Shown here one piece after another: positions 5,520-34,529 of a stretch of DNA of 64,000 nucleotides. The stretch is from Octopus vulgaris (Eukaryota). The notes below the pieces were generated by a model. That model saw only the letters and a program-made list of their open reading frames with translations, was not told the origin of the DNA and ran no database searches. Position 1 is the first letter of the stretch. Each line of letters opens with the position of its first letter. Position numbers and translations under genes: made by a program. The stretch spans positions 55,366,001 through 55,430,000 of the forward strand of contig OX597828.1 in assembly GCA_951406725.2 (NCBI GenBank), given 5' to 3'.

Positions 5520-7820
5520 TGTGTTAAGGCTATGAGTATATAACCCGAGTGAAACAAATTGATCGAGTGAGCGAAGAGAAAGTTGAGAAGTGCTTGACAC
5601 CCATCTGGCAGGATATCACATATCTAGCCAGAGGGAAGAAGTTTGGTACTATCGAAGTATGACTAAATGATATAGAAACTGCACAAATGTACTCAGTTAA
5701 ATCTCTTGAAACGGAAGTCGTTGTTTTAATTCCAATATATTTGGGAATGAGGACGTCAAAGATATGTATACCAAGGGTCCCACCTCAAGTCGACCCTATG
5801 TGGTTGATGGCGGAAGTCCTGGCAAAAAAGGAAGATGATATAACACTCTTTCAGGCTACCGTCACAGAAAAGGCTTATTGGACCGGTCAAACGGTTCACC
5901 TCCTAATACAAGCAGAACAGTCAATTTTTGAACAGTTACCGGAGAAAATAGAAATTAGGGAGGGATTTCTTAACGTATTCGTTGAGGGGCGTAAACCCCG
6001 ATGTTTCCAGTGTGGCCGACAGGACCATATAAACAACACTGTAGAGACGGCGAGGAAGACCCGATGGTGAGGAGGAAAAGAAAGAGAAACAGAAGAAGAG
6101 AAAGCAACTAACAAGAGAAAAATGGAAAGCTCAAATCAACAAAAACAGGTCGAACTAAGACAAAAAAAAACTGCGAAAAGAGTCAAACCAAAAATAGTAA
6201 AAAAGGGAGTAGAAGACAGAGGGATACTCGTTTTATACAGCAAAAATGAAGATTTAATGAGAGAAATAAAAACGAAAAAATCGGCCGCTAAGATTGCAGA
6301 ACTTTCTGATAAATATAAGAACTACGAGTTCTACGAAATGGATAAAAAGATTTATAATGTATTACTTAACACGTATAGAAAGTCTATTATGAGATTGGAT
6401 TTTAATCAATCCATTTTCCAAGACTTGCCACCTCCGACCTTATGTACAGAAAAGGTGGAGAGTCCCTCTCCACAGGACACCCACGATTAAATATGTAAGT
6501 AATGATACATTGGTTGTGTAAATGTTCGTGGCCTGATGTCTAGCTGGAAGCAAGGGCGTCTCCTAAATAACATGAGGTCAAGAAAATTGGATGTGATTGT
6601 TGCAACGGAAACCCGGGTGAAGGGGCCAAGAGGTCTGCTCCCCTTCCTGAACAGCTATGAGAAATACGTTTCTCCGAGTCGGGGTGGGGGTGGAGTGTTG
6701 GTCCTACTAAAAAGAAACCAAGTAGCTGAGAAAAGGTTGTTTTTTTTTCTGATCCAGAAAGTAGGTTGGTCGTTCTCGATCTTATCAGGCTGGTTCCAAT
6801 TTATGCACCCAAAGTTACGGGCCCGCAAAGTGAATATTTTCGTGATCTGGGCAAGTTCCTGGCCACATTGCATTCGCTAGTACTGATAGGAGACTTTAAC
6901 ACAATCTGCCACGCACACACAGATTGTGTTGGCTCGATCATGAATAGAAAATGTAATCCTGGCTAACGGGATCTGCTAAGTCAATTTCAGCTAGTAGATC
7001 TGTATTGGTTGGAACATCCGAACACTCCACAGTGGACGTAGTCAAATAGTGACGGGTCTTTCAGAACATCCAGATAGGGTATTAATTAGAAAAACAGATA
7101 AGTCCATAGCTAAGTGACCACAGTTTTATCTAGTCAGCTACAGTGATACCAAGATGGTTACCTCTAAGCTGACAGTAGATAAGTTGGATAGACAGGGATC
7201 TGGCTACTGGAAACTCAATACGTCCTTTTTGGCGATTGAGGAGCACAGAAAGAGGAACGAGATGTTAATACAGGGGGCATTGACAGGTATCATCATTAAT
7301 AACAAATGGTGGTACGCCCTAAAAAGAGCCATCAAATATGAGTCTATTAGGTTTAGTATAAGTTTAGCTAAGAAGGGACGTAGAATAAGAGATGGTCTAG
7401 TTAAGGAACTAAGTCTGGAGGACTGGTAATGCGGACCAAATGAACGTGAAGAGACTGGAGTTGAACCAGCATCTTGAAGCCCAACACATGGGAAGTATTG
7501 CCAGAGCTAAGTTACATGCGATGGGAAGTGAAGGAATCAAGGCCGCTGGATGGACCCGAGTGGTGGAAGCTCGACAAGGAAATAGTTCCACTATTCGGTC
7601 TTTGACGAATCAAAATGGTGTCTTTGTAAACGCACTCGAGGAAATGTGTGAGGCCTTTCGGGAGTACTTCGATTAGCTGTTCGGGGGTGACGGCGTTCAT
7701 GATGGTAGGGAGTCCTCGAGGACTTTCTTGCCGAGCTGCCATGCCTCTCAGGGTCAGTTGATGAGTCTTGCGAAGGGCCGATCACATCTGTGGAGGTGAT
7801 GGAGTCTATGGCCAACTGTG
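5520..7820 (+). mobile_element. Older, degenerate Tx1-type LINE: ORF1 remnant plus 5' part of ORF2, truncated before the RT
   Basis: Frames give EKVEKCL..GKKFGTIEV..IPRVPP..EGRKPRCFQCGRQDH (ORF1). They then give GCVNVRGLMSSWKQG..ATETR..GDFN..GSGYWKLNTS..NNKWWYALK..EGPITSVEVMESMANC, collinear with the start of ORF2 at 10132. Many stops and frameshifts. Confidence 0.9.
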
Positions 7821-7833
7821 TTGTGTGCCAGTG

Positions 7834-7873
<40 letters not shown>

Positions 7874-7888
7874 AGGCTGTCTGCCTGC

Positions 7889-7977
<89 letters not shown>
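7834..7977 (+). repeat. Compound (GTCT)n(ATCT)n microsatellite, 5' flank of the full-length Tx1
   Basis: Direct reading. Confidence 0.95.
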
Positions 7978-8302
7978 GACGGATGTGATGTCGTTTCAGC
8001 TCCGAAGGTAATCATTTATTTATGACTATTTATAGGCCAATTTTTGTGTAGATTTTTGCAAATAAGGTGTGTAAGGCAACCAACTTTCGTTTGAGTGCTT
8101 TTCTAAGGGAGGAATTCGCCCCTAGGGGCAGTTTCGACCCCATTTCATTTCTGTAATTTTTTTCTCGACATTAGAAAATGTCTAGAAATTTTATTGTTGA
8201 ACGCTGGTCGCGTTCTTTTATGGAACAACATTTCCTAGTCTGGAAACGACAGAGAAAAAAAAGAACGTTCGCACGGAAAATGCAAACGTAAAATTCGGTG
8301 AA

Positions 8303-9724
8303 ATGAACGCTGCAACCACGTGCGTTAACAGCCCTGTCACCACCGCCACCACCACCACCACTAACAACAGCAACCACGAGACAACAACTGCTACCACCAC
8401 CATCTCCACCACCACCACCACCACTACCACGACCAACATAAATGATAAAAATAAAAATAAAACTGAAACGAAAACTATTGACAAAAACAACAGCAACAAC
8501 AAGGACAACAATAAAAATGAACTATCTAATAGTGAAGATGTTAATACAAAAAAATCAACAACATCAGTAAATTTCGCAGGCATTCTTCGCCAGAAGAAAA
8601 AAATAGTAACATTCACGAATGAAGAGCTCATAGAGACAAGAGCTCTCTTTACAACCCGTGGACAAGATTTAGTGCTGCATACACCTCAACATATAAAACA
8701 AGAAATAGAAAATAAGACAATTGTATATAAAATTATTAGAAAAAACAAAAAACCAAATGAACAGATTACAAAAACTGATGTGGAGAAATGTTTAAAAAAC
8801 ATAATGAAAGAAAAAGAGTATATAAACTGGGGTCCCCAGTTTAACACAGTAGTGGTCCGCTTCCCTAACCAGGAAGTGGCAAAAGCTCACTCTACTGAGT
8901 CTCTGGGAAATGATGAAATCATCATGGTCCCTTATTATAAAAACCAGAGGGTGAGTAGAATTACTATCAGAAATGTACCCCCCGATATGCCGAACAAATG
9001 GATAACAGGGGCAATCTGTTACCACTTGAAAAGGATCAATATTTTAGAAACAGCCGTGTACCTAAACGACAATTGGGGTGGAAAAACAGTAGTGGTGACC
9101 ATCCAGATTGAGGGGGCCTCTATCGAGAGCCTACCCGACAAGATATACTTGGAGAATGGGCAATGCCTATATGTTATGGCAGAAGGCAAAAAGCCTAGAT
9201 GCTACAAATGTGGCAGCCCCGAACATTTGATTGCCAAGTGCGATCTGGTACAGAAAAAACAAGAAAGAACTAATCAGAAAACAAATAAAATCCCTTTGTT
9301 GCCAACACCAACACCAACACACTCAATTATGGAACAATGCCAAGAAAAACAACAAACCAGCAAACAAACCCCAACAACATCACCAAGAAAAACAGTACCA
9401 ACACAATCACCGTTGACTTCACAACCAATTAAACCTGTTGAATTAACAAAAAATAGACCCACGCCCACACCCAGGACGACAATTAAAAAGACAGAAAACA
9501 CTGACGAGAAGACAAATGCTACCCCTAACACCACAACAACACAAACACCGCACAAAACATCAACAATTTATACAAGCATACATAGTAATGCAAATGTTTT
9601 GCCTCTACCCCATACTGATACGTCGGACGACGAAAGTTCGACGGAATGGCAAATAGCCACAGGGGTAAAAGAAAAAGATCCAAAAAATCCACCAAACAAG
9701 GAATTAAAGCAGGGAGATATCTAA
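8303..9724 (+). CDS. LINE ORF1 protein (nucleic-acid binding; RRM-like region and CCHC zinc knuckle)
   Basis: 473 aa. Contains CYKCGSPEHLIAKC (C-x2-C-x4-H-x4-C) and ITIRNVPP, with Thr/Asn-rich low-complexity ends. Homologous to the relic at 5520-6070. Confidence 0.85.
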   Translation: MNAATTCVNSPVTTATTTTTNNSNHETTTATTTISTTTTTTTTTNINDKNKNKTETKTIDKNNSNNKDNNKNELSNSEDVNTKKSTTSVNFAGILRQKKKIVTFTNEELIETRALFTTRGQDLVLHTPQHIKQEIENKTIVYKIIRKNKKPNEQITKTDVEKCLKNIMKEKEYINWGPQFNTVVVRFPNQEVAKAHSTESLGNDEIIMVPYYKNQRVSRITIRNVPPDMPNKWITGAICYHLKRINILETAVYLNDNWGGKTVVVTIQIEGASIESLPDKIYLENGQCLYVMAEGKKPRCYKCGSPEHLIAKCDLVQKKQERTNQKTNKIPLLPTPTPTHSIMEQCQEKQQTSKQTPTTSPRKTVPTQSPLTSQPIKPVELTKNRPTPTPRTTIKKTENTDEKTNATPNTTTTQTPHKTSTIYTSIHSNANVLPLPHTDTSDDESSTEWQIATGVKEKDPKNPPNKELKQGDI

Positions 9725-10074
9725 CTCAGGACAACATCCCCTTAGACAATCAAAAAAGTAATGAACCCGTAAAACCACACACACAACTAACTGCAATAGA
9801 CACAGACAATAAAGAATTAATGGACTACATCAAATCTAATATGGTCATCTGTGAAGATGACTTTAAGACAAACAATCATCCGCACACCACACCACCGAAA
9901 CACATCAGAATTTTACACATAACACAAGCACAACACCACATACTGAAAACAATATTTCCGAATGCGGTAGGCGGGTATCAACGATACCTGTCGAAAAAAC
10001 TATACAAACACCTCATCAAAAACGATACAAAAGAAGAAGAAGAAAAAAATGAAACTTTTAAAATGAGTAAGTGA
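9646..10074 (+). CDS. Probable C-terminal part of ORF1 in the -1 frame
   Basis: Overlaps the end of ORF1. Adding one base at the GGGG near 9662 gives the continuous EWQIATGGKRKRSKK. Ends 57 nt before the ORF2 ATG. Confidence 0.6.
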   Translation: MANSHRGKRKRSKKSTKQGIKAGRYLTQDNIPLDNQKSNEPVKPHTQLTAIDTDNKELMDYIKSNMVICEDDFKTNNHPHTTPPKHIRILHITQAQHHILKTIFPNAVGGYQRYLSKKLYKHLIKNDTKEEEEKNETFKMSK

Positions 10075-10131
10075 CCTCACTTCTTGCCTCTTGTCTCTTC
10101 TAATATAGTGTGTAAAACACAATTTTCGTAA

Positions 10132-13100
10132 ATGTCAAGTATGCTTAAATTAGGTTGTGTGAATGCGCGTGGCTTGGCGTCGGCTTGGAAGCAAGGTTAC
10201 CTTCTAAACGACATCAAGTCACTGGACGTGGATATAGTAGCTATCAGTGAAACCAGACTCAGTAAGCCGCGGGCCCTCGAGTCCATGTTTGGCAATCAAT
10301 TTGACATTTATTTTTCTCCCTGTCTGCCGAACATGGGTGGTGGAGGTACTGCGGTGCTTTTTCGAAAGAGTCTAAAGGTAAAAGTAAGAGCAATATTCCT
10401 AGACCCGGAGGGTAGGCTGGTTGTCTTGGACGTGGATGGTAGAAATGGGTGTGCATTCCGTCTGATGGCAGTTTATGCACCGTCCTTAACGGGTCGGGCG
10501 GATTTCTTCAGACGTCTAGAGGTTTTCCTGGGTACGTCTAGACCTTTACTGTTAGTAGGGGATTGGAACGCTACCTTGGACACGCATCTAGATTATGTGG
10601 GAAGGGATAGGAATAGAAGGGGGTGTAAGAGCCTCAAAGACCTGCTCAGACGTTTCCATTTGTCTGACAGGTTCCGACTCGACCATCCGAACGTGCCAAC
10701 GTGGACTTGGACAAACCGCGTCGGATCGTCGAGATCTTATCTAGATAGAATTCTATGCAGGACAGCGGATAGGGATAGTGTAGGATGTCCACAATTTAAA
10801 ATAGTCAGCTACACAGATCACAAATTTGTTACGTGTACGCTCGACTTAGATAAAACACATAGGCAGGGTCCCGGTTACTGGAAACTGAACACGTCGCTGT
10901 TAGCGCGACAGGTTTACAGGAACCGGATTAGCGAGTTAATTAAGAGGGCGCTGACGGGAGCGGTCGTTAACAACCGCTGGTGGTACGCCCTGAAAATGGC
11001 AATAAAATCGGAATCAATTAGGTTTAGCAAGGAATTAGCGATAGAACGAAATAGAGTAGAGGGAAACTTAGTTAAGAAACTAGAAGAGGCACTTACCACT
11101 GGCAGCGCAACCAACGTGCTGGCTGCGAGGATGGCCCTCGACCAACACCTCAACGCCAAGCACGAAGGTTGCGTCGTCAGAGCTAAAATGCGTGCCTTAA
11201 GGAACGAAGGGATTGAAGCTGCGCGAGAGGCCCGGGTAGCGGAGGCGCAGCGTGGCAACAGATCAACCATTCGGTCTCTAATAGATCAACAGGGATGCAG
11301 TTTATTCGAACCCGAAAGGATGTGTGAGGCCTTTCAACAGCACTTTGCTCGACTGTTTGGTGCGAGTGGTGGGTCGGAACGAGGGATGGATTTCAGTGCC
11401 TACCTGACCGACCTGCCGCGGCTCTCGGCAAGAGAAGCGGAGTGTTGTGAAAGTCCCATCACAGCCGCTGACGTGTGGGATGCGATGGCGGGCTGCGCGA
11501 GGGATAAGTCGCCTGGATTGGATGGTTTACCCTACGAGCTGTATTGTCGAATGCCAGACTTGTTTGGCGACCTCTTGGCATCAGTCTACTGCAACTGGCA
11601 ACAAAACGGGAGAAGCCCCGGTTTCGTGAGCCGAGGTGCAGTGACGTTGCTGAAGAAAGACTCAAACAAGGGGAATTTTATAGATAATTTCAGGCCCATC
11701 ACTCTGCTCAACGCAGATTTGAAAATTTTGGCCAAAGTAATAGCCGAGAGGTTGGCGCTTGTCATTGGTAAACTGGTCGACAGGGCGCAAACATGCGCCG
11801 TGCCGGGCAGAACCATACATGACAACCTCCATCTGATGCGCTACATTGTGGACAGGGTAGTTAAGGATCCTGGCATGGGTGGGGCGCTGATAAATTTGGA
11901 TCAGTCTAAAGCCTTCGATAGGGTCGACCATCGGTACTTGGCGGCCGTCCTCAGGGCGGCTGGCTTCGGTCCCGTCTTCCGCGGTTGGATCGCTGCCTTG
12001 TATAGCGGCATCCGATCGGTGATTCGGGTGAACGGTCACCTGTCGAAACCGTTTGACATCACGCGTTCGGTCCGTCAGGGGTGTCCCCTGTCGGCGCTTC
12101 TGTATGTATTGACTCTCGAGCCGCTACTGCGGAAGCTGGCGACACTGAGGGGCATCCCACGGGAACTGGGTTGCGGGACGAGCGTGTCGGCATATGCGGA
12201 CGATGTCACCGTCATAGTGTCGAGCGACAAACACATCAAGATGATAGGCGAGACACTAAGAAAATACGAAACGGTGACGGGAGCAAAGATTAACCCGGAA
12301 AAGTCAGTGGGTTTGCTACTCGGCACCTGGAGAAGCAAGCCCATGCCGTCCGACTGCGGCTCAGTAGTGGGACGCTGGACGGACGGACCGGTTAAATTGC
12401 TCGGGGTCTGGTTCAGTCCGGACCTCCAAATGGATAAGAACTGGGACGAGATCACGAGTAGAGTGGTCGCTCTCAGCCAAACATGGGCCGAGAGAAAGCT
12501 GTCTCTAAAAGGCCGGGCGGAGGTGGCGAACGCGTACATCGCATCCGTCATCGATTACCGCCTGACCGTCGTACCTTGTCCCGACGCCACCATCACCAAA
12601 CTGGAACGCATACTCTTCCGCTTCCTGTGGAAGGGTGGCGTTCCGATGGTGAGGAAGTCCATTTGCTGTCAACATCCGTTGAATGGAGGACTGGGCATGC
12701 CGTGGTTGATGATGCGCAGGCATGCGCTGAGACTGCGACATCTCTGGAAATTCATCGACGACGGTGAACAGGTGTGGGCGCCGTTTGTGAGGCGCGACTT
12801 CCCGCAGCTCGTCTCACTGACCGAACTGCAAACGTGGATCAAAAAGAGACCGAAACTGGGCGATTGGCACCGAGAGTGTCGCCAAGCTCTACAGCAGCTC
12901 TGCCGACCGGGGTCAAACTTGTGCAACTTCCAAACGACTAAAGCGTTCTATAGAGGACTAGTGGAGGGGAGGTCCGACGACACACTCGGGGCAAACCTGG
13001 GCGTCGACGAGGAATTCCTAACCCGCCTGTTCAGAACGACGTTCGGGCCGGGGCCTATGGATAACTTCCAGAAATCCCTGGCTTGGCAGTGCTATCGAGA

Positions 13101-13581
13101 CGCACTACCTGTTCGAGAGAAGAGCTACAGACACGGTTCGAAAACCATCAGCGGACCGACCTGCCCGAGATGCGGTCAGAGCGACGAAACCGTTCTGCAC
13201 GCACTCGTGCAGTGTCCAGATATTTCAGAGCTGTGGTCCTTCGTCGAACAGCTGTTGTCACGTGTAGGTCAGGCTCGCCTATCGGCCGAGTCTATTGTGA
13301 ATATTGTTCCACCACCTTCCTTTAAACGGGAAGGGAAAACGGTTTTCGTTACGCTGATGGCTATGGCGAAAGAATGTGCGTGGTGGACGCGTTTGAAAGG
13401 ACTGCAAACAAACACCTTCCTCTCTGGTCAGTCTCTCGTCAACTTTTTCAAGTACCACTTGAAAAGGAGGATGAGAATAGAGAGGAAGGCTTTGTCGAAC
13501 GAATGTTTTAATAAAAAGTGGGTAAAAGTGGCAAAAATGGTCAGTATGAAAGACGACACTATTTTAAGCATAAATCTGTAA
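10132..13581 (+). CDS. LINE ORF2 polyprotein: APE endonuclease, reverse transcriptase, C-terminal zinc finger
   Basis: 1149 aa, uninterrupted. APE motifs NARGL, SET, VYAP, GDWN, YLDRI, YTDH. RT motifs KSPGLDG, FRPITLLN, DQSKAFDRV, VRQGCPLS, YADD, LLGV. C-terminal CPRC-x8-H-x4-C. GYWKLN linker typical of L1/Tx1. Confidence 0.96.
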   Translation: MSSMLKLGCVNARGLASAWKQGYLLNDIKSLDVDIVAISETRLSKPRALESMFGNQFDIYFSPCLPNMGGGGTAVLFRKSLKVKVRAIFLDPEGRLVVLDVDGRNGCAFRLMAVYAPSLTGRADFFRRLEVFLGTSRPLLLVGDWNATLDTHLDYVGRDRNRRGCKSLKDLLRRFHLSDRFRLDHPNVPTWTWTNRVGSSRSYLDRILCRTADRDSVGCPQFKIVSYTDHKFVTCTLDLDKTHRQGPGYWKLNTSLLARQVYRNRISELIKRALTGAVVNNRWWYALKMAIKSESIRFSKELAIERNRVEGNLVKKLEEALTTGSATNVLAARMALDQHLNAKHEGCVVRAKMRALRNEGIEAAREARVAEAQRGNRSTIRSLIDQQGCSLFEPERMCEAFQQHFARLFGASGGSERGMDFSAYLTDLPRLSAREAECCESPITAADVWDAMAGCARDKSPGLDGLPYELYCRMPDLFGDLLASVYCNWQQNGRSPGFVSRGAVTLLKKDSNKGNFIDNFRPITLLNADLKILAKVIAERLALVIGKLVDRAQTCAVPGRTIHDNLHLMRYIVDRVVKDPGMGGALINLDQSKAFDRVDHRYLAAVLRAAGFGPVFRGWIAALYSGIRSVIRVNGHLSKPFDITRSVRQGCPLSALLYVLTLEPLLRKLATLRGIPRELGCGTSVSAYADDVTVIVSSDKHIKMIGETLRKYETVTGAKINPEKSVGLLLGTWRSKPMPSDCGSVVGRWTDGPVKLLGVWFSPDLQMDKNWDEITSRVVALSQTWAERKLSLKGRAEVANAYIASVIDYRLTVVPCPDATITKLERILFRFLWKGGVPMVRKSICCQHPLNGGLGMPWLMMRRHALRLRHLWKFIDDGEQVWAPFVRRDFPQLVSLTELQTWIKKRPKLGDWHRECRQALQQLCRPGSNLCNFQTTKAFYRGLVEGRSDDTLGANLGVDEEFLTRLFRTTFGPGPMDNFQKSLAWQCYRDALPVREKSYRHGSKTISGPTCPRCGQSDETVLHALVQCPDISELWSFVEQLLSRVGQARLSAESIVNIVPPPSFKREGKTVFVTLMAMAKECAWWTRLKGLQTNTFLSGQSLVNFFKYHLKRRMRIERKALSNECFNKKWVKVAKMVSMKDDTILSINL

Positions 13582-13843
13582 CCAAAAGAGACAACGAGAA
13601 GTAAGGCGACTTACTCATGTGTTCTTTTTCGAATTGTCTGAGGTGACCTTGGTCTTTTTTGTAGGTTTTTCTTTCCAAGACTACACCTAAACTGTGAACC
13701 TTATATATATATATTGCTTTTTTATACACCACACAACCCACAGATCCCTATTGATCAAACGTTTTTTTTTTTTTTTTTCCCACCCATCCCACCTCGAAAA
13801 GAAAAAATTCTACATTGTATTTCGTCCATTTTTATTCTGTGTT

Positions 13844-13866
13844 TAGCCCTGTGTGGCTACAATAAA
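13844..13866 (+). promoter_or_regulatory. 3'-terminal stem-loop (TAGCC-CTGTGT-GGCTA) followed by AATAAA
   Basis: Conserved at 18528-18547 and 34504-34523, and related to the family-A SINE tail. Confidence 0.65.
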
Positions 13867-13869
13867 AAG

Positions 13870-13870
<1 letters not shown>

Positions 13871-13955
<85 letters not shown>

Positions 13956-13977
13956 GTCTGTCTGTCTGTCTGTCTGA

Positions 13978-14015
<38 letters not shown>

Positions 14016-14061
14016 GTCTGTCTGTCTGTCTGCCTGTCTGTCTGTCTGTCTGTCTGTCTGA

Positions 14062-14135
<74 letters not shown>
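13871..14135 (+). repeat. Compound (TATC)n/(TGTC)n array with a higher-order unit, 3' flank of the Tx1
   Basis: [(TATC)n(TGTC)nTGAC] twice, then (TATC)n. Confidence 0.95.
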
Positions 14136-14137
<2 letters not shown>

Positions 14138-14899
14138 ATATCTAGCTAGCTAGCTAACGTCTGTTTGTGTTAATTTAATTGTAAATTAATAAATATAATT
14201 TGTTACAAAACTGAATTGTTTCAACTTATGATCTTATGAGAGAAATATGGAAAGGCATAGATTATAGTATATATTATAATGAAATATAGACCTGAAAGTT
14301 TGCGGGAAAAAAAAATTCAACGTACAGCCGAAAGGATAAGTGAAACCTTGAGTAGGAAATCTTTTTATCCTTTCAGTTTCACTTCTAATGTATTCAATTA
14401 GAGATATTTATTTACAGACTCGACAAGAAGTGGTTTGATAAAATGGCTACACATATAAACAGAACTGGGTTGATAAAAAGGAAAGAGATAAGCAAAGTTA
14501 AAGGGGAGGGGTGGATGAAGAGTAACGATAGAGAAGATGAAGAAACTTATGTAACGACGACATAGGGAGGGGAAAGGAGGAAGCAGAAGAAGTTGAAGGG
14601 GAGGGAAAAGAGGAAGGGAATAATGATGTTTATGCTAAAGGTTTCGATTTGTATATATTTTTTTCTTCTAAGAGAATATAATTGGGAAAATAATTAGAAA
14701 GTGTATAGGAAGTGCATACATACATACATACATACATACATACATACATACATACATACATACATACATACATACATGCATGCATACATACACACACACA
14801 CACACACATACATACATGCATACATACATACATACATACATACATACATACCTTCATGTAAAAATTAAGGTGGAATACGGTAGATCTAGGTATAAGTCC

Positions 14900-16430
14900 C
14901 GCTTATCCATTTAATAATGCTCAAGTTTTGTAATTGATTTATATCTTCGAGGACTTATGTTAACTCGTTGAAATATTTTCACTGTGTTTATTTAGGATAA
15001 TACCTTTAGCAAAGAGTATAGCTGGATTTTCCATCGTGCACAAATTGCACGGTTTCTTGTAATAGACATGAAACCAACCTCTCAGTGGTATGTTCCATTC
15101 CACTCTTGTTTGCAATTAATGTTCAGCTCTTTAACTCTCATATAAACTTAGAGCTGCGATTCCGTTGCTCAGCATGCATCTCGAATAGGCTTATCTCACA
15201 ATATTTCTGTGCCTGTAGAGTTTGCCTCAGGAAATGATCTCCGGTCGTACTGCTATATCATGCATTACTGGACGTTCTCTTTAGATTCTGAGGTGCAAGT
15301 TTTCCGAAACAAGCTCCTTCGTTGTCATTAACACCAAAAGCTACCTTGAAGATCGTTGCTCTTCCTCAACACATTTCCCTCCCTGAAGCTATAACGAGGA
15401 AGTTTTACGGATCGCATCTCCCGAACGGTTAAGGACTCTGACAAAATTCTTGGTGTCATGTACCCAGACTTGAACTTCCCTTGACCTAAGTAAGCAACTC
15501 CTTTAAAGAGACCTGCTGAAAGGGAAGAAACATGCTGGATAAAGAGCGACTACACCTGTTCTTCGTATGTAGATACGAAAATCAATGTAGAAACGGAAGT
15601 CCCCTGCTGTCTCTGTTGCATTGTTTGCTCTGATCATTTAAATAAAATGCCGCTGAAAAGCGGCCACACATCTGCCTGGAATAAAACAGGACATACCCCT
15701 CTCGGTCTATCACAGACCGAATTGTAGCTTTGATGCCACGTCACGTCTCTGCCACCTAGGTCCCTCCAACACCTTTCGTTTCCATCATATTTAAGAGCTG
15801 GCGCCTTAGCTCTGAAGATGCAGCATTCGTCTTCCACGTTCAAGAAATAGTCGAGAGCCATTCTCGTCGCTATCACATTCTCGCAATGCTTTCCTTATCA
15901 TCTCTTTTAATACGCACCTCTCGTCTATTTTTCTTCATTGCTACTTCTTTCATAAATGCTATTGATTTTACTCTGATCGTCCTGTTCAAGGCGCCATCAC
16001 CAGTCAACAGCCACTTAATCTTCTGTCACCGGCTCCTTAATTAATTTGCTAATATTGTTTCTGTAGGGTTTCGCACCGGGAACGACGCCATCAGTTTCCA
16101 GTAACTGAATTCCTGTCTATGTTTTTCCTCTATGTCAACCTGCTTATTTTGTGAGTATGTATGGAAATATACTGGTGTCACGGATGACTACTACAACCTG
16201 TCTTCTGCGTTTAGTGACCTAAAATTGTTGAGCAAGTAACTCAAGTTGAAAATAGTCTAAGACACATGCATGGCCATCTTGACCGCGAAAAGGAATTTGA
16301 GAGAGGTCATTCACATTGATTTTGGAGAAAGACGAAGTAATCCAGTCTTCTCCTCGGGAAAGATTTCTTAACCGCTCTTCTATTTTTTCTCTGAGCATCA
16401 TTTAGACGCTTGTCAACTTCTTTAAGCAAA
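14900..16430 (-). mobile_element. Ancient Tx1-type ORF2 relic with an internal deletion spanning the RT domain
   Basis: Minus frames give YWKL (~16100) and ATRMALDYFLNVEDECCIFRAKAPALKYDG (cf. AARMALDQHLNAKHEGCVVRAKMRALRNEG). GLPFL follows shortly after (~15600), then GKLYRH..YSRC (~15200). Boundaries approximate. Confidence 0.75.
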
Positions 16431-17121: not shown

Positions 17122-17852
17122 CGTTTGTCTCTGTGTGTATGTATATGTGTATATATATATATATATATGTGTGTGTGTATGTGTGTGTGTGTGTGCGTGC
17201 GTGCGTGTGTGTATAAGTATATACATGTTTGTATATATATATCCATATATATATATATACATACACACACACACATATATATATATATATACATATATAT
17301 AGAGAGAGACACAAACCCATGCATGCATACACATATTGGTATATATATTTTTGGATATATATGCCTGTGTGTTTACACACACGTGTATGTATATATACGT
17401 GTGTGAGTGTGCGTCTGTGTATGCGTGCGTATATGTATGTGTTAGTATATTTCATTGTTATGACAGATCAATCTAGAAGAAAAATGGTCTACAGATTGAC
17501 AGAGATTCGTTCACAGAGAACAAGTCGATAAAAGGCAAAGAATTGAATCAAAGACAATAGAACAATGCCGACGCTGAAAGAACTAAGCTTGTCTACAGAC
17601 TTTATTAAAGGTCTGAATGTGTTCAGCTCTGGTTACTGTGTAACACAGACGTCTATATATGAACTACTGAGGAGATAAAATCTATAAATATTCACATACA
17701 ACTCTACGTTTCTATTCCGACATGAAAATGTCTGGCTTCACCGTTCGCTCTATCTCATCCTTACTATCCTCTCGTACTTCCTGTCTTTCTTTCTTTCTCT
17801 GTCTCTCTCTCCCTCATTCTTTCCCTTTCTTTCTCTGTCATGTATATATAGA

Positions 17853-17900
<48 letters not shown>

Positions 17901-18044
17901 GGCATATATATATATATTAAACGCGCACACACACATACATACATATACACATACATACATACATACATACATACATACATACATACATACATACATACAT
18001 ACATACATACATGTGAACAAATAACAACAGACGGATAATGGTTC

Positions 18045-18150
18045 ATTCACTACAGCTGTTTCAAGCGAGATTTTTTTTTTATTGATTATCAGAATTATTA
18101 AATCATGCCAAAAAAAAAAAGAAAAGAAAACCTTTTTTCATCTGGTGAAT
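18045..18150 (-). ncRNA. Degenerate hammerhead-like motif with long helix II region
   Basis: Minus strand reads ATTCAC-CAGATGA-...-GAAA-CAGCTG-T-A-GTGAAT: 6-bp helix I, palindromic helix III, core with U4 changed to A. Confidence 0.35.
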
Positions 18151-18272
18151 ATACACGAATTAAACATTTTAAATAAACATCCGAAGAATGAACATTATGT
18201 ACGACTTCATGTTTTCTTGGCTATCTTCAGCCTAAGAATGATTCGCTTATACTAGTTAGTACTTTTAATCTA

Positions 18273-18335
<63 letters not shown>

Positions 18336-18336
<1 letters not shown>

Positions 18337-18553
18337 ATTTTTCCTCTCCCCCTTTTTTTTTAACCCCCCCTTTTTTTGTCCTCTTTCTCTCCTTTTACGA
18401 TCCCTTTTGATCGACACCCCCTTTTTTTTATTTTATTTTTTATTTTATTTTTTTAATTTTTAATTTTTTTTTTTTTTTAAACCTTCAAAAGAAAAGCTCT
18501 ACCTTGTAATTTGTTCTATCTGTGTGCAGCCCTGTGTGGCTAATAAAGAAACA
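18336..18553 (+). mobile_element. Severely 5'-truncated Tx1 copy (3' UTR only) within (TATC)n
   Basis: ccttttacgatccc..gatcga..aaaagaaaagctctaccttgtaa..tctgtgtgcagccctgtgtggctaataaagaaac matches 34386-34528. (TATC)n lies on both sides. Confidence 0.88.
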
Positions 18554-19195
18554 TATCTATCTATCTATCAATCTATCTATCTATCTATCTTCCTCGCTCT
18601 CTCTCTCTCTCTATATATATATATCTTTATCTTTTATTAAACTTTTAATACTTTTGATATTTAAAAAAAAATAATAAATTAACTAATTAATTAATTAATA
18701 AAATAATATATAAATATAAAAATATACATACATATATATATATATTTGTATATATATATATAATTTATAAGTTTAAATTATTTAAATAATTATTTATTTT
18801 TAACTTTTATATTTTAAAATTAATTTTATGTATTGGCTTATGTTTTTCACTGTTTGATTTGCCTAATAGTGGTTTTATCTCTAATATAATATAATATAAT
18901 ATAATATATTTATACTATAAAATTGGATTTAATCCTAAATCTAATTTTTCCCTGTAAGTTTGGATTTATTCCCTAATATTATATATATATATATATATAT
19001 GTACATGTGTGTTTGCGCGTGTATATGTATAAACATCTGTATACACTTGTATAATATGTATATATATATATATATATGTATGTGTGTATGCATATAGGTA
19101 TGTATCTAAAAGCAATATATATAATTAATATAATTAATATAAACAGCAGTTTATAATTGCCATTATAATTGCCATTAAGTGTCACGAGGGTGTTA

Positions 19196-19369
19196 AGAAA
19201 CTGACGTCACTATTAAGGATTTTCGATCGGAATTTTTGGATGATTCAGGTCCCTGTAACTGCATATACTTCCATTCATGTGCGTTAACTGCAGTATTAGG
19301 GCATTTTAGCTTTTATTTCTAGCAACGTAGTTGTTTCTTAGCAACCTAGTCACATTTAGTGACAATTAT
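19196..19369. repeat. Interspersed repeat of unknown class; inverted homologue at 23256-23435
   Basis: ctagtcacatttagtgacaattata / tataattgtcgctaaatgtgactag and the adjacent ~150 bp align in opposite orientation. Confidence 0.7.
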
Positions 19370-19390
19370 ATGTATATATATATATATATA

Positions 19391-19613
19391 CTTTATTTAA
19401 AGCAGCAGAAAATTCAACAAAACCTGTTACTCTGAGTTTCCCGCTGCCGTTCATCGGACAGTTTTTGCAAAAACTGTCCGATGAACGGCAACGGGAAACT
19501 CAGAGTAACAGGTTTTGTTGAATTTTCTGCTGCTTTAAATAAAGCATATTACTCAACCACTGGTATTTGAGAACTCTTTTTTCCACCTTGTTTCACATTT
19601 ATGTGTTTACTCC

Positions 19614-19616
<3 letters not shown>
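19391..19616 (+). mobile_element. (TA)n-embedded element starting with a 154-bp palindrome (Penelope-like terminus with 5' inversion)
   Basis: 19391-19544 is self-complementary (77-bp arms, no spacer, one mismatch) and is followed by a ~70-bp unique tail. Hammerhead-like motif at 19474-19511. Confidence 0.6.
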
Positions 19617-19651
<35 letters not shown>

Positions 19652-19704
19652 CATACACACATATATATATATATTTATATATATATATAGGTGTATGTAA
19701 ATAT

Positions 19705-19756
<52 letters not shown>

Positions 19757-19800
19757 GCATATATATATATATTCATACTCTCAAACATCTATGGTCTCTT

Positions 19801-19839
<39 letters not shown>

Positions 19840-20269
19840 AACCTTAGGTGGTTAGCTTAAGCTGTTTAATACCACTATCTCGTTTACCAAGGCCATATTA
19901 TCCAGTGATATTTGGACAGTTCTTGCATTGGAATTTTTTCTGTCATAAGCGTTGACATTTCCAATTAGTATGTAAGAGATCTTACGTGGAAACTGGTTAA
20001 CTGGTTTATTTTTGCTTGTATGTCATCAAAGAATTCATATATACGCCTACGAACACTTTCATACATAACACGCATGCGTGCACACACACACACATGTACA
20101 CACACAGACAAACAAACATATATATATTATATACAAAGGAAGAGTCCAGTGTAATCCATGGGTAGGAGAGGTGCAGCCGAAGCGTAGGAGTCCAGGTGCA
20201 GGAGAGTAGAAGAAAGTCCAGGTAGAGAATCCAGATAGAATAGTCCAAGAAAAGTTCGAAGTGGAGGTG

Positions 20270-20458
20270 GAGATAGATCGTTAGCCACAAAACCTCTTTC
20301 TATTTTCCCTCGCTGTTTATTAGTGTTCCTTTCTGTCGAAGAGCGTAGGCTCGAAACGTAAAAGACTTTTTCACTTCGCGAGCGTTAAACTAATACATCT
20401 GTTTGTTGCTTAGACACCCGTCTTCGTCTATTGTTTTTTTTTGTAAATTCTCACTATA
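20270..20458 (+). mobile_element. Penelope-like short element with hammerhead-like motif (20329-20364)
   Basis: CTTT-CTGTCGA-A-GAGC(GTAG)GCTC-GAAA-CG-T-A-AAAG. Homologous to 37940-38135 and 44703-44908. Confidence 0.6.
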
Positions 20459-20526
20459 TTATATACACATAGGCATACAAAATATTTATCTGAAACTAGC
20501 TTATACATTCATGAATACATACACAC

Positions 20527-21258
20527 AGTGGATTTCCAAGATATAGCACCCCACTGCAGATCATCACAGATCTTCCTCCATCTTTAACAGTTGGAAGAAG
20601 GCAGTCTGGATCAAATGCTTCTTTTGGCTTTCTCCGCATGCATACTCGGCCGGTGGTCAGAAATAAGGTAAAGGATGATGACAAGGCGGCGAGCTGGCAG
20701 AATCGTTAGCACGTCGGGCGAAATGCTTGGGGTCGATGTAATCGACTTAATACCTATGTCTGTCCTTGTTTGTCCCCTCTGTGTTTAGCCCCTTGTGGGT
20801 AATAAAGAAATAGGTAAAGGATGATTCCTCCGAGAAAATAACATTCTTCCACTGCTTTAGGGATCAATTCTATAGGTTTTTATTCCACTCGAAACGTTTG
20901 TTTCTGAAAGTAGTGGTTTTCTGATTGCTGCCCTTCCGTGAAATCCGGCTTTGTGCAGTTCCCGGCGAACATTTTTTGTGAAACTGGGTTCTCGAGATGG
21001 TCATTAAGCTCTGCAGTAATTTTAGGAGCTGCACTTTGGTGGTCCTTTCTAACAATTCGCCTAAGAGTCCGACGGTCCCTATCTAAAAGTGTTAGTTTTC
21101 TTTTTGTTTTAGTTTTGTTTCCATGAGGATGTTTTTCCCTCTTTCTCAAAGACTGTCATTACTTTCGAGTCAGTACTTCTTGATACACCAAATATTTCGG
21201 CTGTTTTCGTTACGCTAGCGCCTGCCATGCGAGCACCAACAATTTGACCTCTTTGAAA
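20527..21258 (-). mobile_element. Tc1-family DNA transposase relic, interrupted by a SINE
   Basis: Minus frames give FQRGQIVGARMAGASVTKTAEIFGVSRST, DRDRRTLRRIVRKDHQSAAPKITAELN, QWKNVIFSEESSFTLF and EAFDPDCLLPTVKDGGRSVMI. Confidence 0.88.
20683..20811 (+). mobile_element. SINE family A, internally deleted, tail type 1, 14-bp TSD
   Basis: Head ggcggcgagctggcagaatcgttagc joined to ggggtcgatgtaatcgac...tagccccttgtgggtaataaagaaat. TSD AGGTAAAGGATGAT at 20666-20679 and 20812-20825. Confidence 0.88.
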
Positions 21259-21279
21259 TTATATATATGAGTGTGCGTG

Positions 21280-21480
21280 TGTGTGTCTTTGTATCTATGC
21301 TTGTGCTATTCAACCGCTTCTTAATGTAGTTATGCCCCCGCAACTTAGTGGTTCACCAAAAAGCAATATGATATTACCAAATTTGAAAAAATAATGTCTG
21401 GGGTCTATTTGTTCGGCTAAATCCCAGTAAAGCGGTGATCCAACATGGCTGCAGTCCAGTATCTTGAAGCAAGTGGACGA
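21280..21480 (+). mobile_element. Degenerate 3' half of SINE family B
   Basis: cccccgcaacttagtggttc..ctggggtctatttg..gcggtgatccaacatggctgcagtc matches 24100-24235. Confidence 0.6.
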
Positions 21481-22235
21481 AAGTGATGGAAAAGATATTG
21501 ATCCAATACTCTATCTCTCTCTTTCTCACACATACGCACACACATACGCACATAAATGCATACACACGCATACATGAACAAACACACATACAGAGTAGAA
21601 AAAGAAAAACTAAAGCAGCAACAAGGAAACCATAGTGCTACCTGTTGAAACAAATTCGTTATAAACAAAAGAAAGAAATCCTCAGCTTGTTAAAATTACC
21701 TTCGTTCATAACAATAGGACCGCTTAGGATATTGTCTAAAACGAAGGCAGAATATAACTAGAAGACAAGAGAAAAGAAATGTATTTGCATATGTGTGTGT
21801 GCTTTTGCGTGAAAGTGTTTATATGTGTGGGCGTGCGGTGATGTACGTCAAAAAAGCCAGTGAAGCAAAGATTATGTTCATGATAAAACATGTGCTAATA
21901 TAGATTAAACATATTGCTTGTTCAGTGTGAAAGTTATAAAGTCCAACTGACATACAACGATATGAAGCAACAATGGTAACAACAATGAAACAAAAGACTA
22001 GAACACACACGCTGAGCGTGCGCACACAAAAGAAGAAAAAAAAACAGAACAAAACTTGATGAATATAAATATGATCGAATGAAAAACGAAACGAAAGCAA
22101 ACGAATATGTGAAGACAGGTTTGAAGTAAGACCCGTATCGGCACGAACAAACACTGCGTATACCTACGGAAAACCACAAGGATCGAAAGACATACATATT
22201 TATCATGACACGTACGAATACAACCACAGCTGAAA

Positions 22236-22425
22236 TGGAGGCGTAAAGGCCCAGTGGTTAGGGCAGCGGACTCATGGTCGTAAGAACGCGGTTTCGATTC
22301 CCAGACCGGACATTGTGAGTGTTTATTGAGCAAAAACACCTAAGCTCCACCAGGCTCCGGCAGGGAGGGTGGTGAACCCCGCTGTACTCTTCACCATAAC
22401 TTTCTCTCATTCTTTCTTCCTACTT
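22236..22425 (+). mobile_element. tRNA-derived SINE family C
   Basis: A box (ggcccagtggttagggc), B box (ggtttcgattccc) and body shared with 32690-32880 and 37265-37449. Confidence 0.8.
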
Positions 22426-22716
22426 CTGCCACAAAGCAGAGGAACCATAGTTTAACCCACTATGGTGTGATAAACTTTCAGACCCTAGTCTAGATTGCGT
22501 ATCCTCTGTACCCTAGGATGATTCAGCTCTCCACCCGTTAAAAGCCACCGTTTACGGAATGAGGATAACAACGTAGCTTTCGTGCCTGTGCAACCGCTAG
22601 TCTATCGCGTGTGGTGGTGGTGGGGGATCTTCAAGTTGCCGCACGCATTCTTAGTAGCTTAGAGTAGGCTCGAATTAGAGATTATTCTTTGTGGCTAATG
22701 GCGTGAGTCCTGATTG

Positions 22717-22795
22717 GAAGAAGAAGAAGAAGAAGAAGAAGAAGAAGAAGAAGAAGAAGAAGAAGAAGAAGAAGAAGAAGAAGAAGAAGAAGAAG
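22717..22795. repeat. (AAG)n microsatellite
   Basis: Direct reading. Confidence 0.95.
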
Positions 22796-23790
22796 ACCAT
22801 AGCTGAATATATACACATACGATGATGGCATCATCTCGTTAGATGACAGCCGTCACACATTTCACCTGATTCTTCTGATTTACTTTCATCCTTACATATG
22901 CACGGATATGCTGCACATGCCGCAATGCATCCATCGCCATAGCAATTTATGAAATACAAAATGGATCAAGAAATGAATTGACAGTGAGACATCCGTACAT
23001 CGATAGATTTAAGTGACAAAAGCTTGTACAAAACATTGGTCTTTCTCTCGGCCGCCAAAGTAGGTTCCTATGGTAAGCATTAGAAAATTACTAGAACTAT
23101 TTCGACTCCCAGATTTATGTTAGTGTGTCTTTCTCAGAAATAATGGGAGCCTCGTCTACCTCTGGAAAATCTAGTAATAGTTAATCCACACACACACACA
23201 CACACACACAAAATTAATATAAACAGTAGTTTACTGTTTTACCAAAGAAGAGAATTATAATTGTCGCTAAATGTGACTAGGGTGCTAGGAAACAACTACA
23301 TTGCGAGAAATAAGAGCTAAACCGCTCTAATTCTGTAGTTAACGCATGTGAATGAAAGCATATACATACACTGGCAGGGACCATAATTGTCCGAAAAATG
23401 CCAATCGAGAATTCTCAATATTAACGTCAGTTTCGGAAATTTCCGTTGCTTCATCAGCTAAGCCCTCTCGTTATTAATATTCATGTTTTCGTCATCAAAT
23501 TATTGAATGATTTAGCGATTCGCTAATGAGTATATATAAAATTAATATACACAGCAATAAGCAATAGTTTGCAATGTTTCACCATGGTGGCTGATAACTC
23601 GTAGACAAGTTACGACTATCACTTATAAATTATCTCAGCTTCGATGTTAAAGACTATGGGTGTCAGCAATGCCTGCGTGAAATTCAATGCCACTAATAGC
23701 GTGCATAACACCGTCCATAAAGCCAAGTATTCCCAAAACAAGCAAGTGTAAAGTCTCCGACGTTGCTATGAGGTATTTCTATTTCCTATA

Positions 23791-23986
23791 GGCGTAGGAG
23801 TGGCTGTGTGGTAAGTAGCTTGCTTACCAACCACATGGTTCCAGGTCAAGTCCCACTGCGTCGCACCTTGGGCAAGTGTCTTCTACTATAGCCTCGGGCC
23901 GACCAAAGCCTTGTGGGTGGATTTGGAACTGAACCCGGAACCATGTGGTTGGTTAGCAAGCTACTTACCACACAGTCACTCCTGCG

Positions 23987-24039
<53 letters not shown>

Positions 24040-24257
24040 GTGTGTATATATGTTTGTGTGTCTGTGTTTGTCCCTCCAACATCGATGCTGGTGTGTTTAC
24101 GTCCCCGTCACTTAGCGGATCGGCAAAAGACACCGATAGAATAAGTACTAGGCTTACGAAGAATTAGTCCTGGGATCGATTTGCTCGACTAAAGGCGCTG
24201 CTCTAGCATGACCACAGTCAAATGACTGAAACAAGTAAAAGAGTAAAGAGTAAAAGA
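23791..24257 (+). mobile_element. tRNA/CORE-like SINE family B containing an inverted copy of its own head
   Basis: Head ggcgtaggagtggctgtgtggtaag, CORE-like ccttgggcaagtgtctt, inverted head at 23925-23988, internal (TA)n, and 3' half ending gaaacaagtaaaagag. Confidence 0.85.
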
Positions 24258-24556
24258 GATGTCGAAACAAAGACGGGGGGGGGAGAGGTGCCTTTCACTC
24301 CCAACTCTTTGATGGCCTTTGACTCTATCGGGTTTATCCGTCATTTGTTTTGTTTTTCGTCCTACAGGGTGTACAAGAAAATCAGCCTCCCTATCAAGCA
24401 TGATTGACAGGGCTACCGGGTTAGTCATCTACGGCCCGACTATACGAGTGGTTGTGATAAGGAACATGTTACAATTAGCACTAAGAGCTGCTTGACACAC
24501 ACACACACACACATACACACACACACACACACACAGACAAACACACACACACACAT

Positions 24557-25146
<590 letters not shown>

Positions 25147-26030
25147 TGCATGTGTATATAGCTCTGTAGAGGCTGCAAATTACCTTGTATTATTTGTTGT
25201 TGCATCACTAAGTCGGTGAACTGGCAGAATCGTTAAAACGCCGGAGAAAATGCTTAGGTGCATTCAATCCGTCTTATCATCCAAGCGCTATATGTCCAGA
25301 GTTCAAATCTTGCCTCCTGCATCTCGGCCTTTGGTCGTTGAAGATCAATTAAAGTAGCAGTCGAAGGCTTTGGATATGTGGAATTGCTTGATAGTTTGCT
25401 TATTAGGATCTGAATGCCCAGACATGTTTGACGGACTTATCTGCTTCTACTTATAGCATTCTGTCTTGTGAAAATATGTAATACCCAAAAGAAGCCAACG
25501 GAAATCCCATTTTTACTATCGTACGAAAATTCCATTGCAAACGCTATGTGTCCGTTAAGGAAGTCATTAGAGGTAGTTCGTTGACCTGACGGTCGTATGA
25601 GGAAAGGAAGGACATAGGATATACTTCTCTGTACATGTGTGAGCGTATGTGTTTTAGAGCAAGTATTCTTTTCAATACGTCACAGTTAAATTAATCATTA
25701 TTCCGTGACATTTTCCCCGTCATATCTAGAATCAACGACCTGTTTCATTTGAAAGAAGATGAAAACGGTTTTGTCTGTTTGAACTTGAAAGGAAGCACCC
25801 ACACAATATTCGGAAAGAGAGATGGGCAGACAGCGAAAGAGAGAGAGAGAGAGAGAGAGGGGGGGAGGGGAGAATAAGAGAAAAAGAGAGAAAGAAAGAG
25901 AGAGAGAGAGAAAGAGAGACAGATAGAGGCAGAGGGACACAGAGAGAGCGAAATTAAGCTTAATAAAGAAAAGAAACTACGATATATCTCAATAATTATT
26001 ACAAAAATGCAATAAAAGTATCAATACATA

Positions 26031-26086
<56 letters not shown>

Positions 26087-27784: not shown

Positions 27785-28110
27785 CGACTATGCATGAAGA
27801 GAGGAAATAGAGGAAGGGGACTGATAAATGTGGAAGATGCCTATTATAGTTCGGTCCTTGGTGACAGTATCATAAGGCATCAAGAGGAATATAAAGGAAA
27901 TTGGAATTGAGTGCCCAATAGAACTGTTACAAAAGGTTTGCTTCCTTGGCACGGCCAGAATAATCAGGAAAGTATTAGCTGAAGAGAACGAAAAGCATGG
28001 TACTGTAAGCTGCAGGTAGTAAGCCGGCTACGCATGCTAGGCTCCAGGAGCTCCAACAAAACTTGTAATAAAGAGAAAGTAAAAATAATAATAATGATAA
28101 TAATAATAAT
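27785..28110 (+). mobile_element. Dong/R4-like (restriction-like endonuclease) non-LTR 3' relic ending in (TAA)n
   Basis: RLCMKRGNRGRGLINVED joined to IKEIGIECPIELLQKVCFLGTARIIRKVL (typical R4/Dong C-terminus), then a short 3' UTR and a (TAA)n run. Confidence 0.7.
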
Positions 28111-28986: not shown

Positions 28987-29024
<38 letters not shown>

Positions 29025-29271
29025 CATCTTCACGTTTAATTTTTTGCCGCTCTTTCCCGTTGTTTCTCAGTCTGTCCGTCTGTCTGTCTGTCTTTATTTC
29101 ACAAACCCACCTACACAAACGCACTCTCTCCAACTCAGTATTTAATTGTACTTTGTGTGTTCTTCTTCTTCCTTTCTTTTTTCAGAGCTAATTCAGTTTT
29201 CTCTTTTCCCCTAATCTAATGTTTTCTCGTGTCTCTTTTTCTTTTCTTTAGCTCTTCTATACTTTTCATTC

Positions 29272-29814: not shown

Positions 29815-29884
<70 letters not shown>

Positions 29885-30752: not shown

Positions 30753-30832
<80 letters not shown>

Positions 30833-30989
30833 AATCTTCCTTTCTATCTATCTATATATCTATCGATCCTACACTAGCCACTCCTTTTTCACTCCCTCCC
30901 TCCCTCACCCACTCACTCACTCCCTCCCTCCCTCACCCACTCACTCCCTCCCTCCCTCCCTCCCTCCCTCCCTCCCTCCCTCACTCACT

Positions 30990-32471: not shown

Positions 32472-32515
<44 letters not shown>

Positions 32516-33357: not shown

Positions 33358-33359
<2 letters not shown>

Positions 33360-34529
33360 GGCACCGCGAGTGTCGCGTTGCTCTCAAGCAACTCTGCCGT
33401 CCCGGGTCGACCTTGAGTGACTTCAACACAACCAAAGCATTCTATAGGGGATTAGTGGAGGGGAGGTACGACGACGAGTTCGGGGCGAACCTGGACGTCG
33501 ACGAGGAGTACCTGACCCGCCTGTTCAGGACGACTTTCGGGCCAGGGCCCATGGACAACTTCCAGAGATCCCTGGCCTGGCAGTGCTACCGAGAAGCGCT
33601 ACCCGTTCGGGATAAGCTCTACAGACACGGCTCGAGAAACACGGGGCCGACCTGCCCGAGATGCGGTCAGAGCGACGAAACCGTTCTGCACGCACTCGTG
33701 CAGTGTCCAACAATTTCCGACCTGTGGGCTTATGTCGAACAACTGCTGTCACGTGTGGGACGAGTCGGTTTATCAGCTGAGTCTATCGTCAATATTGTCA
33801 CGCCTCCTTCCTTCAAACGGGAAGGAAGAGCTATTTTCATCATCCTTGTGGCTATGGCGAAAGAATGTATCTGGTGGACGCGTCTGAAAGGATTGGAGAC
33901 AAACACTTTCCTCTCTGGTCAATCTCTCATCAACTTCTTCAAGTACCACTTGAAAAGGAAAGTGAGAATAGAGAGGCAAGTTTTGTCTAGCGAATGTTTT
34001 AAAAAAAGATGGGTGAATGTAGCAAGGATGGCACGTATGAATGACGAAGCCACCTTGAGCATAATCCTATGAACCCAGAAATTGAAAACAGAGGGTTACC
34101 CACTTGCAAACAAATGTGGTAACATATAACAATATTGACCAAGGTTACCGTGGTCTTTTCCGTAGGCTTTTCTTCCCACGGATAAACCTTACTTGCTTTC
34201 CCCTTTACACCATATATCATAACACTGTGATACACGATCCCTATTGATCGTTTTTTTTCCTCTTCCCCCTTTTTTCCCCTTTCTTCTTCTTTTTTCATTT
34301 CTCTTTCCTTTTGTTCCTTTTCCTTTTCTTTTTTTTCTTTTTATTCCTTTTATTTTATTCAAATTTTTTTTTGTTCTTTTCTTCCCTTTTACGATCCCTC
34401 TTGATCGAAAACCTACGCCACCCCTTTTTTTTTTCTTTTGTTTTTTGTGCTCTTCATCCCCCAAAAGAAAAGCTCTACCTTGTAACTTGTCCCATCTGTG
34501 TGCAGCCCTGTGTGGCCAATAAAGAAACT
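33358..34529 (+). mobile_element. 5'-truncated Tx1 copy (related subfamily) within (TATC)n
   Basis: Begins ttggcaccgcgagtgtcgc (cf. ~12864), covers the ORF2 C-terminus and 3' UTR, and ends ccaataaagaaact|tatc. (ATCT)n lies upstream at 33310-33357. Confidence 0.92.
33413..34072 (+). pseudogene. C-terminal 219 aa of Tx1 ORF2 (open frame, no real start)
   Basis: TTKAFYRGLVEGR..CPRCGQSDETVLHALVQCP..NFFKYHLKR, collinear with the end of ORF2 at 10132-13581. Confidence 0.9.

Follow-up and report, generated by a model that had tools for sequence, protein, structure and literature searches.

The window analysed here, a 64,000-nt stretch of the Octopus vulgaris genome (contig OX597828.1, positions 55,366,001 to 55,430,000), carries a full-length LINE of 5,893 nt on the forward strand (7978..13870), which belongs to a family that we call A. 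Its 5' flank consists of TGTC-type repeats and then (TATC)22 at 7890-7977 (together 7834..7977), and its 3' flank of (TATC)21 and then mixed TGTC/TATC arrays (13871..14156), both given on the same strand. Family A has 204 exact 3' ends genome-wide, and the window copy diverges from 23 young siblings by 0.7% over 3.4 kb of ORF2. ORF1 (8178..10074, forward), which encodes ~625 aa in intact siblings of the family, is broken near 8235 and 9662, with 8303-9724 as its longest open piece; the two breaks are single-base frameshifts relative to an intact sibling, both fall in homopolymer runs, and they are either genuine or assembly errors. ORF2 (10132..13581, forward) is an open frame of 1,149 aa with an APE endonuclease at aa 23-211 (Pfam), a reverse transcriptase with YADD at aa 510-760 and a C-terminal zinc motif at aa 981-1035 that scores slightly below the Pfam cut-off; the usual catalytic motifs were found by eye.

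Elements of the Tx1 clade have a separate ORF1 with a CCHC zinc knuckle. Such an ORF1 is present here, with one CCHC knuckle whose Pfam score lies slightly below the curated cut-off, and it is accompanied by an ORF2 that combines APE, reverse transcriptase and a C-terminal Cys/His motif, as in Tx1 elements of the L1 group. The putative L1/Tx1-type assignment is based on this anatomy and on one protein match, at 33%, that was automatically named 'Transposon TX1 uncharacterized 149 kDa protein'. Sequence-cluster look-ups named no close relative, the Atlas search returned only generic APE-RT clusters, and a fast tree of 33 rows (3 short rows excluded) included no curated Tx1 member and so says nothing on clade. 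The closest solved structures to the APE domain are the L1 endonuclease and its loop chimeras; the endonuclease loop compared alone with solved structures gave no match. Comparison of four runs guessed to be RNA with 12700-13905 gave near-identical contigs that leave the repeat-rich end uncovered, and one contig with A's after the ORF2 stop, neither of which we take as evidence; contigs from four DNA runs compared with 17600-35200 bridge no array among the matches listed, and so reveal no empty site there.

Two 5'-truncated copies of related elements lie further along the forward strand. One, of family B (18336..18553), stands between TATC arrays at 18268-18335 and 18554-18590, and the other, of family C (33358..34529), between arrays at 33310-33357 and 34530-34555. 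The families were named by their 3' ends (A, AAAAGT; B, GAAACA; C, GAAACT), and B and C are sister families of A at ~81% identity; the family C copy encodes ORF2 aa 912-1149, 78% identical to family A, and matches the full-length copy at 81% over 710 nt. An earlier note on this DNA had described these three copies as insertions of one family, each preceded by (ATCT)n and each resuming at TATC in the same orientation with no poly(A). The three insertions and their junctions were confirmed, as were the 3' resumption at TATC, the single orientation and the lack of poly(A), and all three copies do have an array on the 5' side; however, the phase of that array varies, ending in TATC at the first copy and in ATCT at the second and third, and the copies belong to three families rather than one.

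The window also holds older decayed LINE pieces at 5552-7846, 15584-16160 (reverse strand), 27458-27724 (reverse) and 35130-35585 (reverse), three of them Tx1-like and the one at 35130 an unrelated reverse transcriptase fragment. The first of these (5552..7846, forward) is an older relative, with amino acid identities of 33% in ORF1 and 39-56% in ORF2, and it stops where the repeat tract starts. With three copies in 64 kb, the density in the window is ~13-fold the genome mean (10,252 in 2.8 Gb), and copy density over the first 12.7 Mb of the contig sampled below (C1) is ~2 times that mean. At another locus (L142, forward strand, ~1,500-1,800) a diverged family with a different end runs into (TGTC)n, which may be another target.

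The conserved 3' end of the full-length copy (13845..13870, forward) comprises a predicted hairpin at 13845-13858 and then 12 nt containing AATAAA (13861-13866), with no poly(A). In the main families the element ends 12-13 nt past this small predicted hairpin, which was no more stable than shuffled sequences (z -1.0 to +1.2). A genome-wide count gave 10,252 occurrences of the terminal motif that the families have in common, against 0 for the reversed control. Among 8,470 exact 3' ends of families B and C, 7,369 are followed by TATCT, of which 6,287 continue as TATCTATC, while 114 are followed by TATC and a base other than T, 503 by TAT and a base other than C, and 484 lack TAT; in family A, TATCT follows 191 of 204 ends. 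No poly(A) was found in 87 consecutive copies or in 59 family A loci.

The 3' side by itself could be the product of the element. LINEs of the L2, CR1 and RTE types end in a microsatellite tail of their own, and in these the repeat stands only on the 3' side, with none at 5' truncation points. This pattern was not what we found, for arrays also adjoin the points of 5' truncation. We sampled the first 87 of 100 listed copies (contig C1, 0-11.1 Mb), a set from families B, C and D in which most copies are truncated and 9 of 87 are full length, and counted a 5' run where at least 8 nt of TATC ended at the junction. Of 78 truncated copies, 53 abut such a run; in the background, 20 random 10-kb stretches (200 kb) scored by a looser rule than the junctions, only 0.49% of positions lie beside a TATC run of at least 8 nt (1,955/398,960). 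The truncated copies with 5' arrays represent dozens of different truncation points and all four phases of the repeat, although stacked copies among them are non-independent events. Seven of the nine full-length copies also have a 5' array, which is not independent evidence, as six of the boundaries had been reset by hand to the last array. Both the 5' flanks (53 of 78) and the 3' ends (74% with TATCTATC) exceed the mark of one target in more than 20% of flanks that is used in PMC4494074.

The proposal that the element makes the repeat as a tail, or that it inserts at random and survives only in arrays, is therefore, in our judgement, extremely improbable, since 5' arrays occur at dozens of unrelated truncation points. 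The arrays on the two sides are also equally long (medians 68 nt on the 5' side and 63 nt on the 3' side, n = 47, p = 0.91), which identifies the repeat as target and not tail. Moreover, 18 copies by our own count from the table combine a 5' run of at least 8 nt with no more than 9 nt of TATC on the 3' side, and the long 5' array that many copies show beside a 3' run of only 5-9 nt cannot be tail-made. Nor does that proposal sit well with the nearly uniform orientation, as at most 484 of the 8,470 B and C ends may be reversed and 1 of the 87 consecutive copies is, or with the background, in which (TA)n, though seldom used, is five times as frequent as (TATC)n. In its favour are ~6 copies in which a long array on the 3' side faces unrelated sequence on the 5' side. 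Strict 5' runs are lacking from 25 of the 78 truncated copies, and their presence varies with apparent age, from 34 of 43 copies at less than 3% divergence to 7 of 19 at more than 6%. The contention of the earlier note that a tail cannot account for the 5' arrays is thus borne out by the excess over background and the equal array lengths.

Family A behaves differently and also lends the tail proposal some support. It is mostly full length (49 of 59 loci, L031-L069 and L300-L319), and 46 of the 49 full-length copies have a 5' array, whereas among independent truncated copies the array is found in only 3 of 9; the others comprise four unrelated 5' flanks without a duplication, one AATC array and one inversion. 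The bases TATT before the start are common to 25 full-length copies, and three separate ones (L036, L056 and L316) have one identical imperfect array end, with a fourth (L063) similar, although L056 and L316 lie 180 kb apart and may be duplicates. The shared imperfect end suggests that transcription starts inside the upstream array, and part of the 5' array of full-length family A copies probably travels on the RNA, as a tail-like origin of the repeat would have it. Given these shared imperfections and this carriage, the full-length family A copies are not independent evidence of targeting. Possibly the excess of full-length copies arises because 5' joining is aided by the array carried on the RNA.

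Several loci with unusual structures were noted alongside. One family D copy (L113; compare L060) has the same 5' start as family A and then diverges, which suggests an exchange of 5' UTRs between families. An imperfect repeat of ~60 nt stands on both sides of one truncated copy (L313), far above the usual duplication length, and one family A copy (L043) lies head to head with an inverted piece of a sister family, with a 7-nt overlap.

Insertions away from perfect sites allowed target-site duplications to be read. We sampled 120 of the 617 ends that are followed by TAT but not by TATCT (non-canonical sites); the 5' junction was in view in 104, and 19 had an informative duplication. Sixteen of these duplications start at the first base past the element and have TAT in both copies, so that TAT is present in the target copy as well, again contrary to a repeat made by the element; of the other three, one is from a (TAT)n array and in two the third base is not the same. 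The duplications are ~8-17 nt long, with exact matches of 9-17 nt that are overcalled owing to microhomology at the junction. The base just outside the duplication is T at 8 sites, C at 7, A at 2 and G at none (17 sites, the sixteen above and L181), a pyrimidine in 15 of 17 cases and, away from arrays, in 11 of 13 (p = 0.003). This bias gives a target of Y/TATCT(ATC), which on the opposite strand means a primer ending in GATA and a nick followed by a purine. A single TAT(C), as opposed to an array, is the smallest target, and by our own arithmetic the use per available site falls from 1 to 0.06, 0.004 and 0.001 for matches of 8, 5, 4 and 3 nt, figures for which the background is only 200 kb and whose classes are blurred by later mutation. 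A preference for array edges or element ends was also considered and is not claimed, as the order of insertion in stacks is ambiguous.

Taken together, the flanks and duplications of filled sites, from which we judge targeting, leave us in very little doubt that this lineage inserts by target, and in one orientation, into (TATC)n arrays that already exist. Target-primed reverse transcription at such arrays would explain all of the observations. In the sequence of events that we propose, the conserved 3' tail would be bound by the ORF2 protein, whose APE domain would nick the GATA strand at GATA/GATA, after A and before a purine. Reverse transcription would then start always in one register, 12-13 nt beyond the hairpin, with UAUCU read into the downstream array aiding priming, and a second nick 8-17 nt away would make the duplication.

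Whether the site is then chosen by the nuclease, by the RNA or by both is a finer question. Flanks alone cannot separate the two, as both act on the primer side. We consider the chances to be even that an endonuclease nick and the pairing of read-through RNA with the nicked strand choose the site jointly. The pyrimidine outside the duplication argues for a part played by the nuclease, as primer pairing cannot explain it; we counted the steep fall of per-site use with match length for RNA pairing, and the lack of poly(A) despite an AATAAA points to internal priming. The use of RNA pairing with the target has been reported for SART1 and R1Bm, in the available excerpts of PMC7265360.

An endonuclease that recognises 5-8 bp of the GATA repeat by itself, with RNA pairing adding little, appears to us somewhat unlikely, although it would account for the pyrimidine bias. 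It would also agree with the fixed register and with the lack of repeat units added from the RNA, which were seen in none of 114 on-target ends, among which only 2 cases were clean; the selection of non-canonical sites was such that added units could not show there. The predicted DNA-contact loop hardly varies between families A and B, the Tx1L endonuclease is sequence-specific in vitro (PMC1950540, in part), and the available text of PMC4494074 credits target choice mainly to the endonuclease. Against such an enzyme acting alone stand the internal priming just mentioned, mismatches at SINE junctions that lean to the RNA letter (see below) and, in L1, integration sites that are a subset of nicking sites (PMC1950540, in part). 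The interpretation in the earlier note is upheld for oriented insertion into (TATC)n, through the flank counts and duplications, and not for a tetranucleotide-specific endonuclease as sole cause, since the preference lies nearly all on the primer side of the nick, where RNA-primer pairing would act as a check too.

A SINE that shares the LINE tail bears on the same question. At 20685..20812 (forward) the window contains a copy, shortened by an internal deletion, of a 231-nt SINE; it has a tRNA-like head (recognised by eye) and a 14-nt target duplication, and it lies outside TATC. Over its last ~50 nt it is 80% identical to the LINE tail, so that the two have the shared 3' tail expected of a stringent LINE/SINE pair. 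Other SINE pieces with the LINE tail lie at 59056-59114 (reverse), 47566-47610 (reverse) and 62377-62421. The SINE forms stacks of 182-nt units, landing mostly at sites that start with GGTA, AGA or TA. Of 91,044 exact SINE tails, at most 162 adjoin TATCTATC, which is about background. Among 121 tails in the examined loci, 52 are followed by another SINE unit and 69 are terminal, and 30 of the terminal tails have a duplication, against 0-3 for shuffled pairs. The base outside these duplications is T in 12, C in 11, A in 7 and G in none, and their length is as in the LINE. Targets differ between SINE subfamilies, starting with A in 12 of 16 cases against 5 of 45 (p = 4e-6). Where the two copies of the 30 duplications differ early, the read-through letter stands in the 3' copy in 7 cases against 1, with 3 neutral (scored by eye).

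The SINE data fit RNA guidance. They also invite a stronger proposal, in which a loose nuclease leaves the target to be inherited on the RNA: transcription of a copy that sits in an array runs on into UAUC, the descendants insert into arrays in turn and the preference is locked in. We hold this to be quite unlikely. It draws on a SINE with a similar tail that is not enriched at TATC, on SINE subfamilies that land on the letters trailing their tail in stacks, on an outside-base bias and duplication length common to SINE and LINE, and on the lower specificity of older LINE copies. However, the wave of SINE copies predates families B and C (pairwise divergence 10.6% against 1.9-2.4%), divergence among GC-type SINE units is higher in the terminal than in the inner ones (0.091 against 0.059), as stacking in place predicts, and decay of the flanks in old copies mimics lower specificity. 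For the same reasons of age we downgraded the SINE as a same-enzyme control, its terminal units also looking older than the inner ones. Since it shares the tail of the LINE and yet not its preference for TATC, a sister or ancestral family probably serves as its carrier. A Tx1 LINE aimed at the SINE head, which would give the SINE another nuclease, was found ahead of none of 70 such SINE segments in the examined loci. It is doubtful, to our mind, that one loosely specific nuclease serves throughout while a few read-through bases pick the site, so that the target would be heritable on the RNA, switchable without a change of protein and self-perpetuating. Equally open to doubt is that these bases would be UAUCU for the LINE and GGUAUUU or AGAAAC for the tail-sharing SINE. 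We retain the joint action of nick and pairing as our working description.

With these findings, (TATC)n/(GATA)n joins the few microsatellites that APE-type retrotransposons are known to choose, and it does so in an invertebrate host and with many copies. The octopus elements are a good system for apportioning LINE site choice between nuclease and RNA-primer pairing: near-miss insertions number in the thousands and have duplications that can be read, several families differ in age, and a SINE with a shared tail goes to other targets. In practical terms, insertions may be present in the GATA markers of such genomes.

The literature that we covered held no TATC-targeting family; Repbase, Dfam and Fig. 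3 and the supplements of PMC4494074 lay outside that coverage and may hold one. The available portions of PMC8967140, PMC10294476, PMC4640811, PMC4758252, PMC5786205, PMC4824008, PMC3531059 and PMC3472496 name no TATC target, and an octopus repeat annotation reports 13 recently active L1-Tx1 families with no target analysis in the part accessible (PMC13282606). The closest parallels, compared by published description, are the crocodilian Tx1 families Tx1-1_Crp, Tx1-5_Crp, Tx1-6_Crp, Tx1-1_Gav and Tx1-2/3/5/8_AMi, which according to excerpts of PMC4494074 prefer (TTCC)n/(TTTC)n. They are likewise APE-type Tx1 elements with a preference for a tetranucleotide microsatellite, whereas the octopus elements target (TATC)n in an invertebrate host. 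Kibi and Koshi of teleosts, which target (TC)n and (TTC)n (Kojima and Fujiwara 2004, as cited in the consulted parts of PMC4494074 and PMC3812793), also show sequence-specific insertion of the Tx1 clade into microsatellites; they differ in repeat unit, and here single TAT(C) sites are used as well at a low rate, by several families and in more than 10,000 copies. The unit TATC is thus none of the TC, TTC, TTCC or TTTC of this group. A LINE that targets (TAA)n, Dong, is listed from a snail (PMC3812793, in part).

Beyond the Tx1 clade, SART1Bm and R1Bm of the R1 clade are APE elements that reside in repeats and may start reverse transcription by annealing their RNA to the nicked site, and SART1 inserts with poly(A) into telomeric repeats (excerpts of PMC7265360); the elements described here lack poly(A) and belong to another clade. 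Tx1-Mar with SINEU (PMC4494074) and LINE1-1_ZM with ZmSINE2/3 (PMC3472496) likewise link a SINE to an L1/Tx1-type LINE and likewise show, in the available text of both sources, tandem insertions around a target duplication, although in the octopus the SINE has the common tail but not the TATC target. The novelty foreseen in the earlier note accordingly narrows, as tetranucleotide-preferring Tx1 elements are known from crocodilians and a microsatellite LINE from a snail: microsatellite targeting by Tx1 elements is a known habit, and what appears to be new here is the repeat unit TATC and the host.
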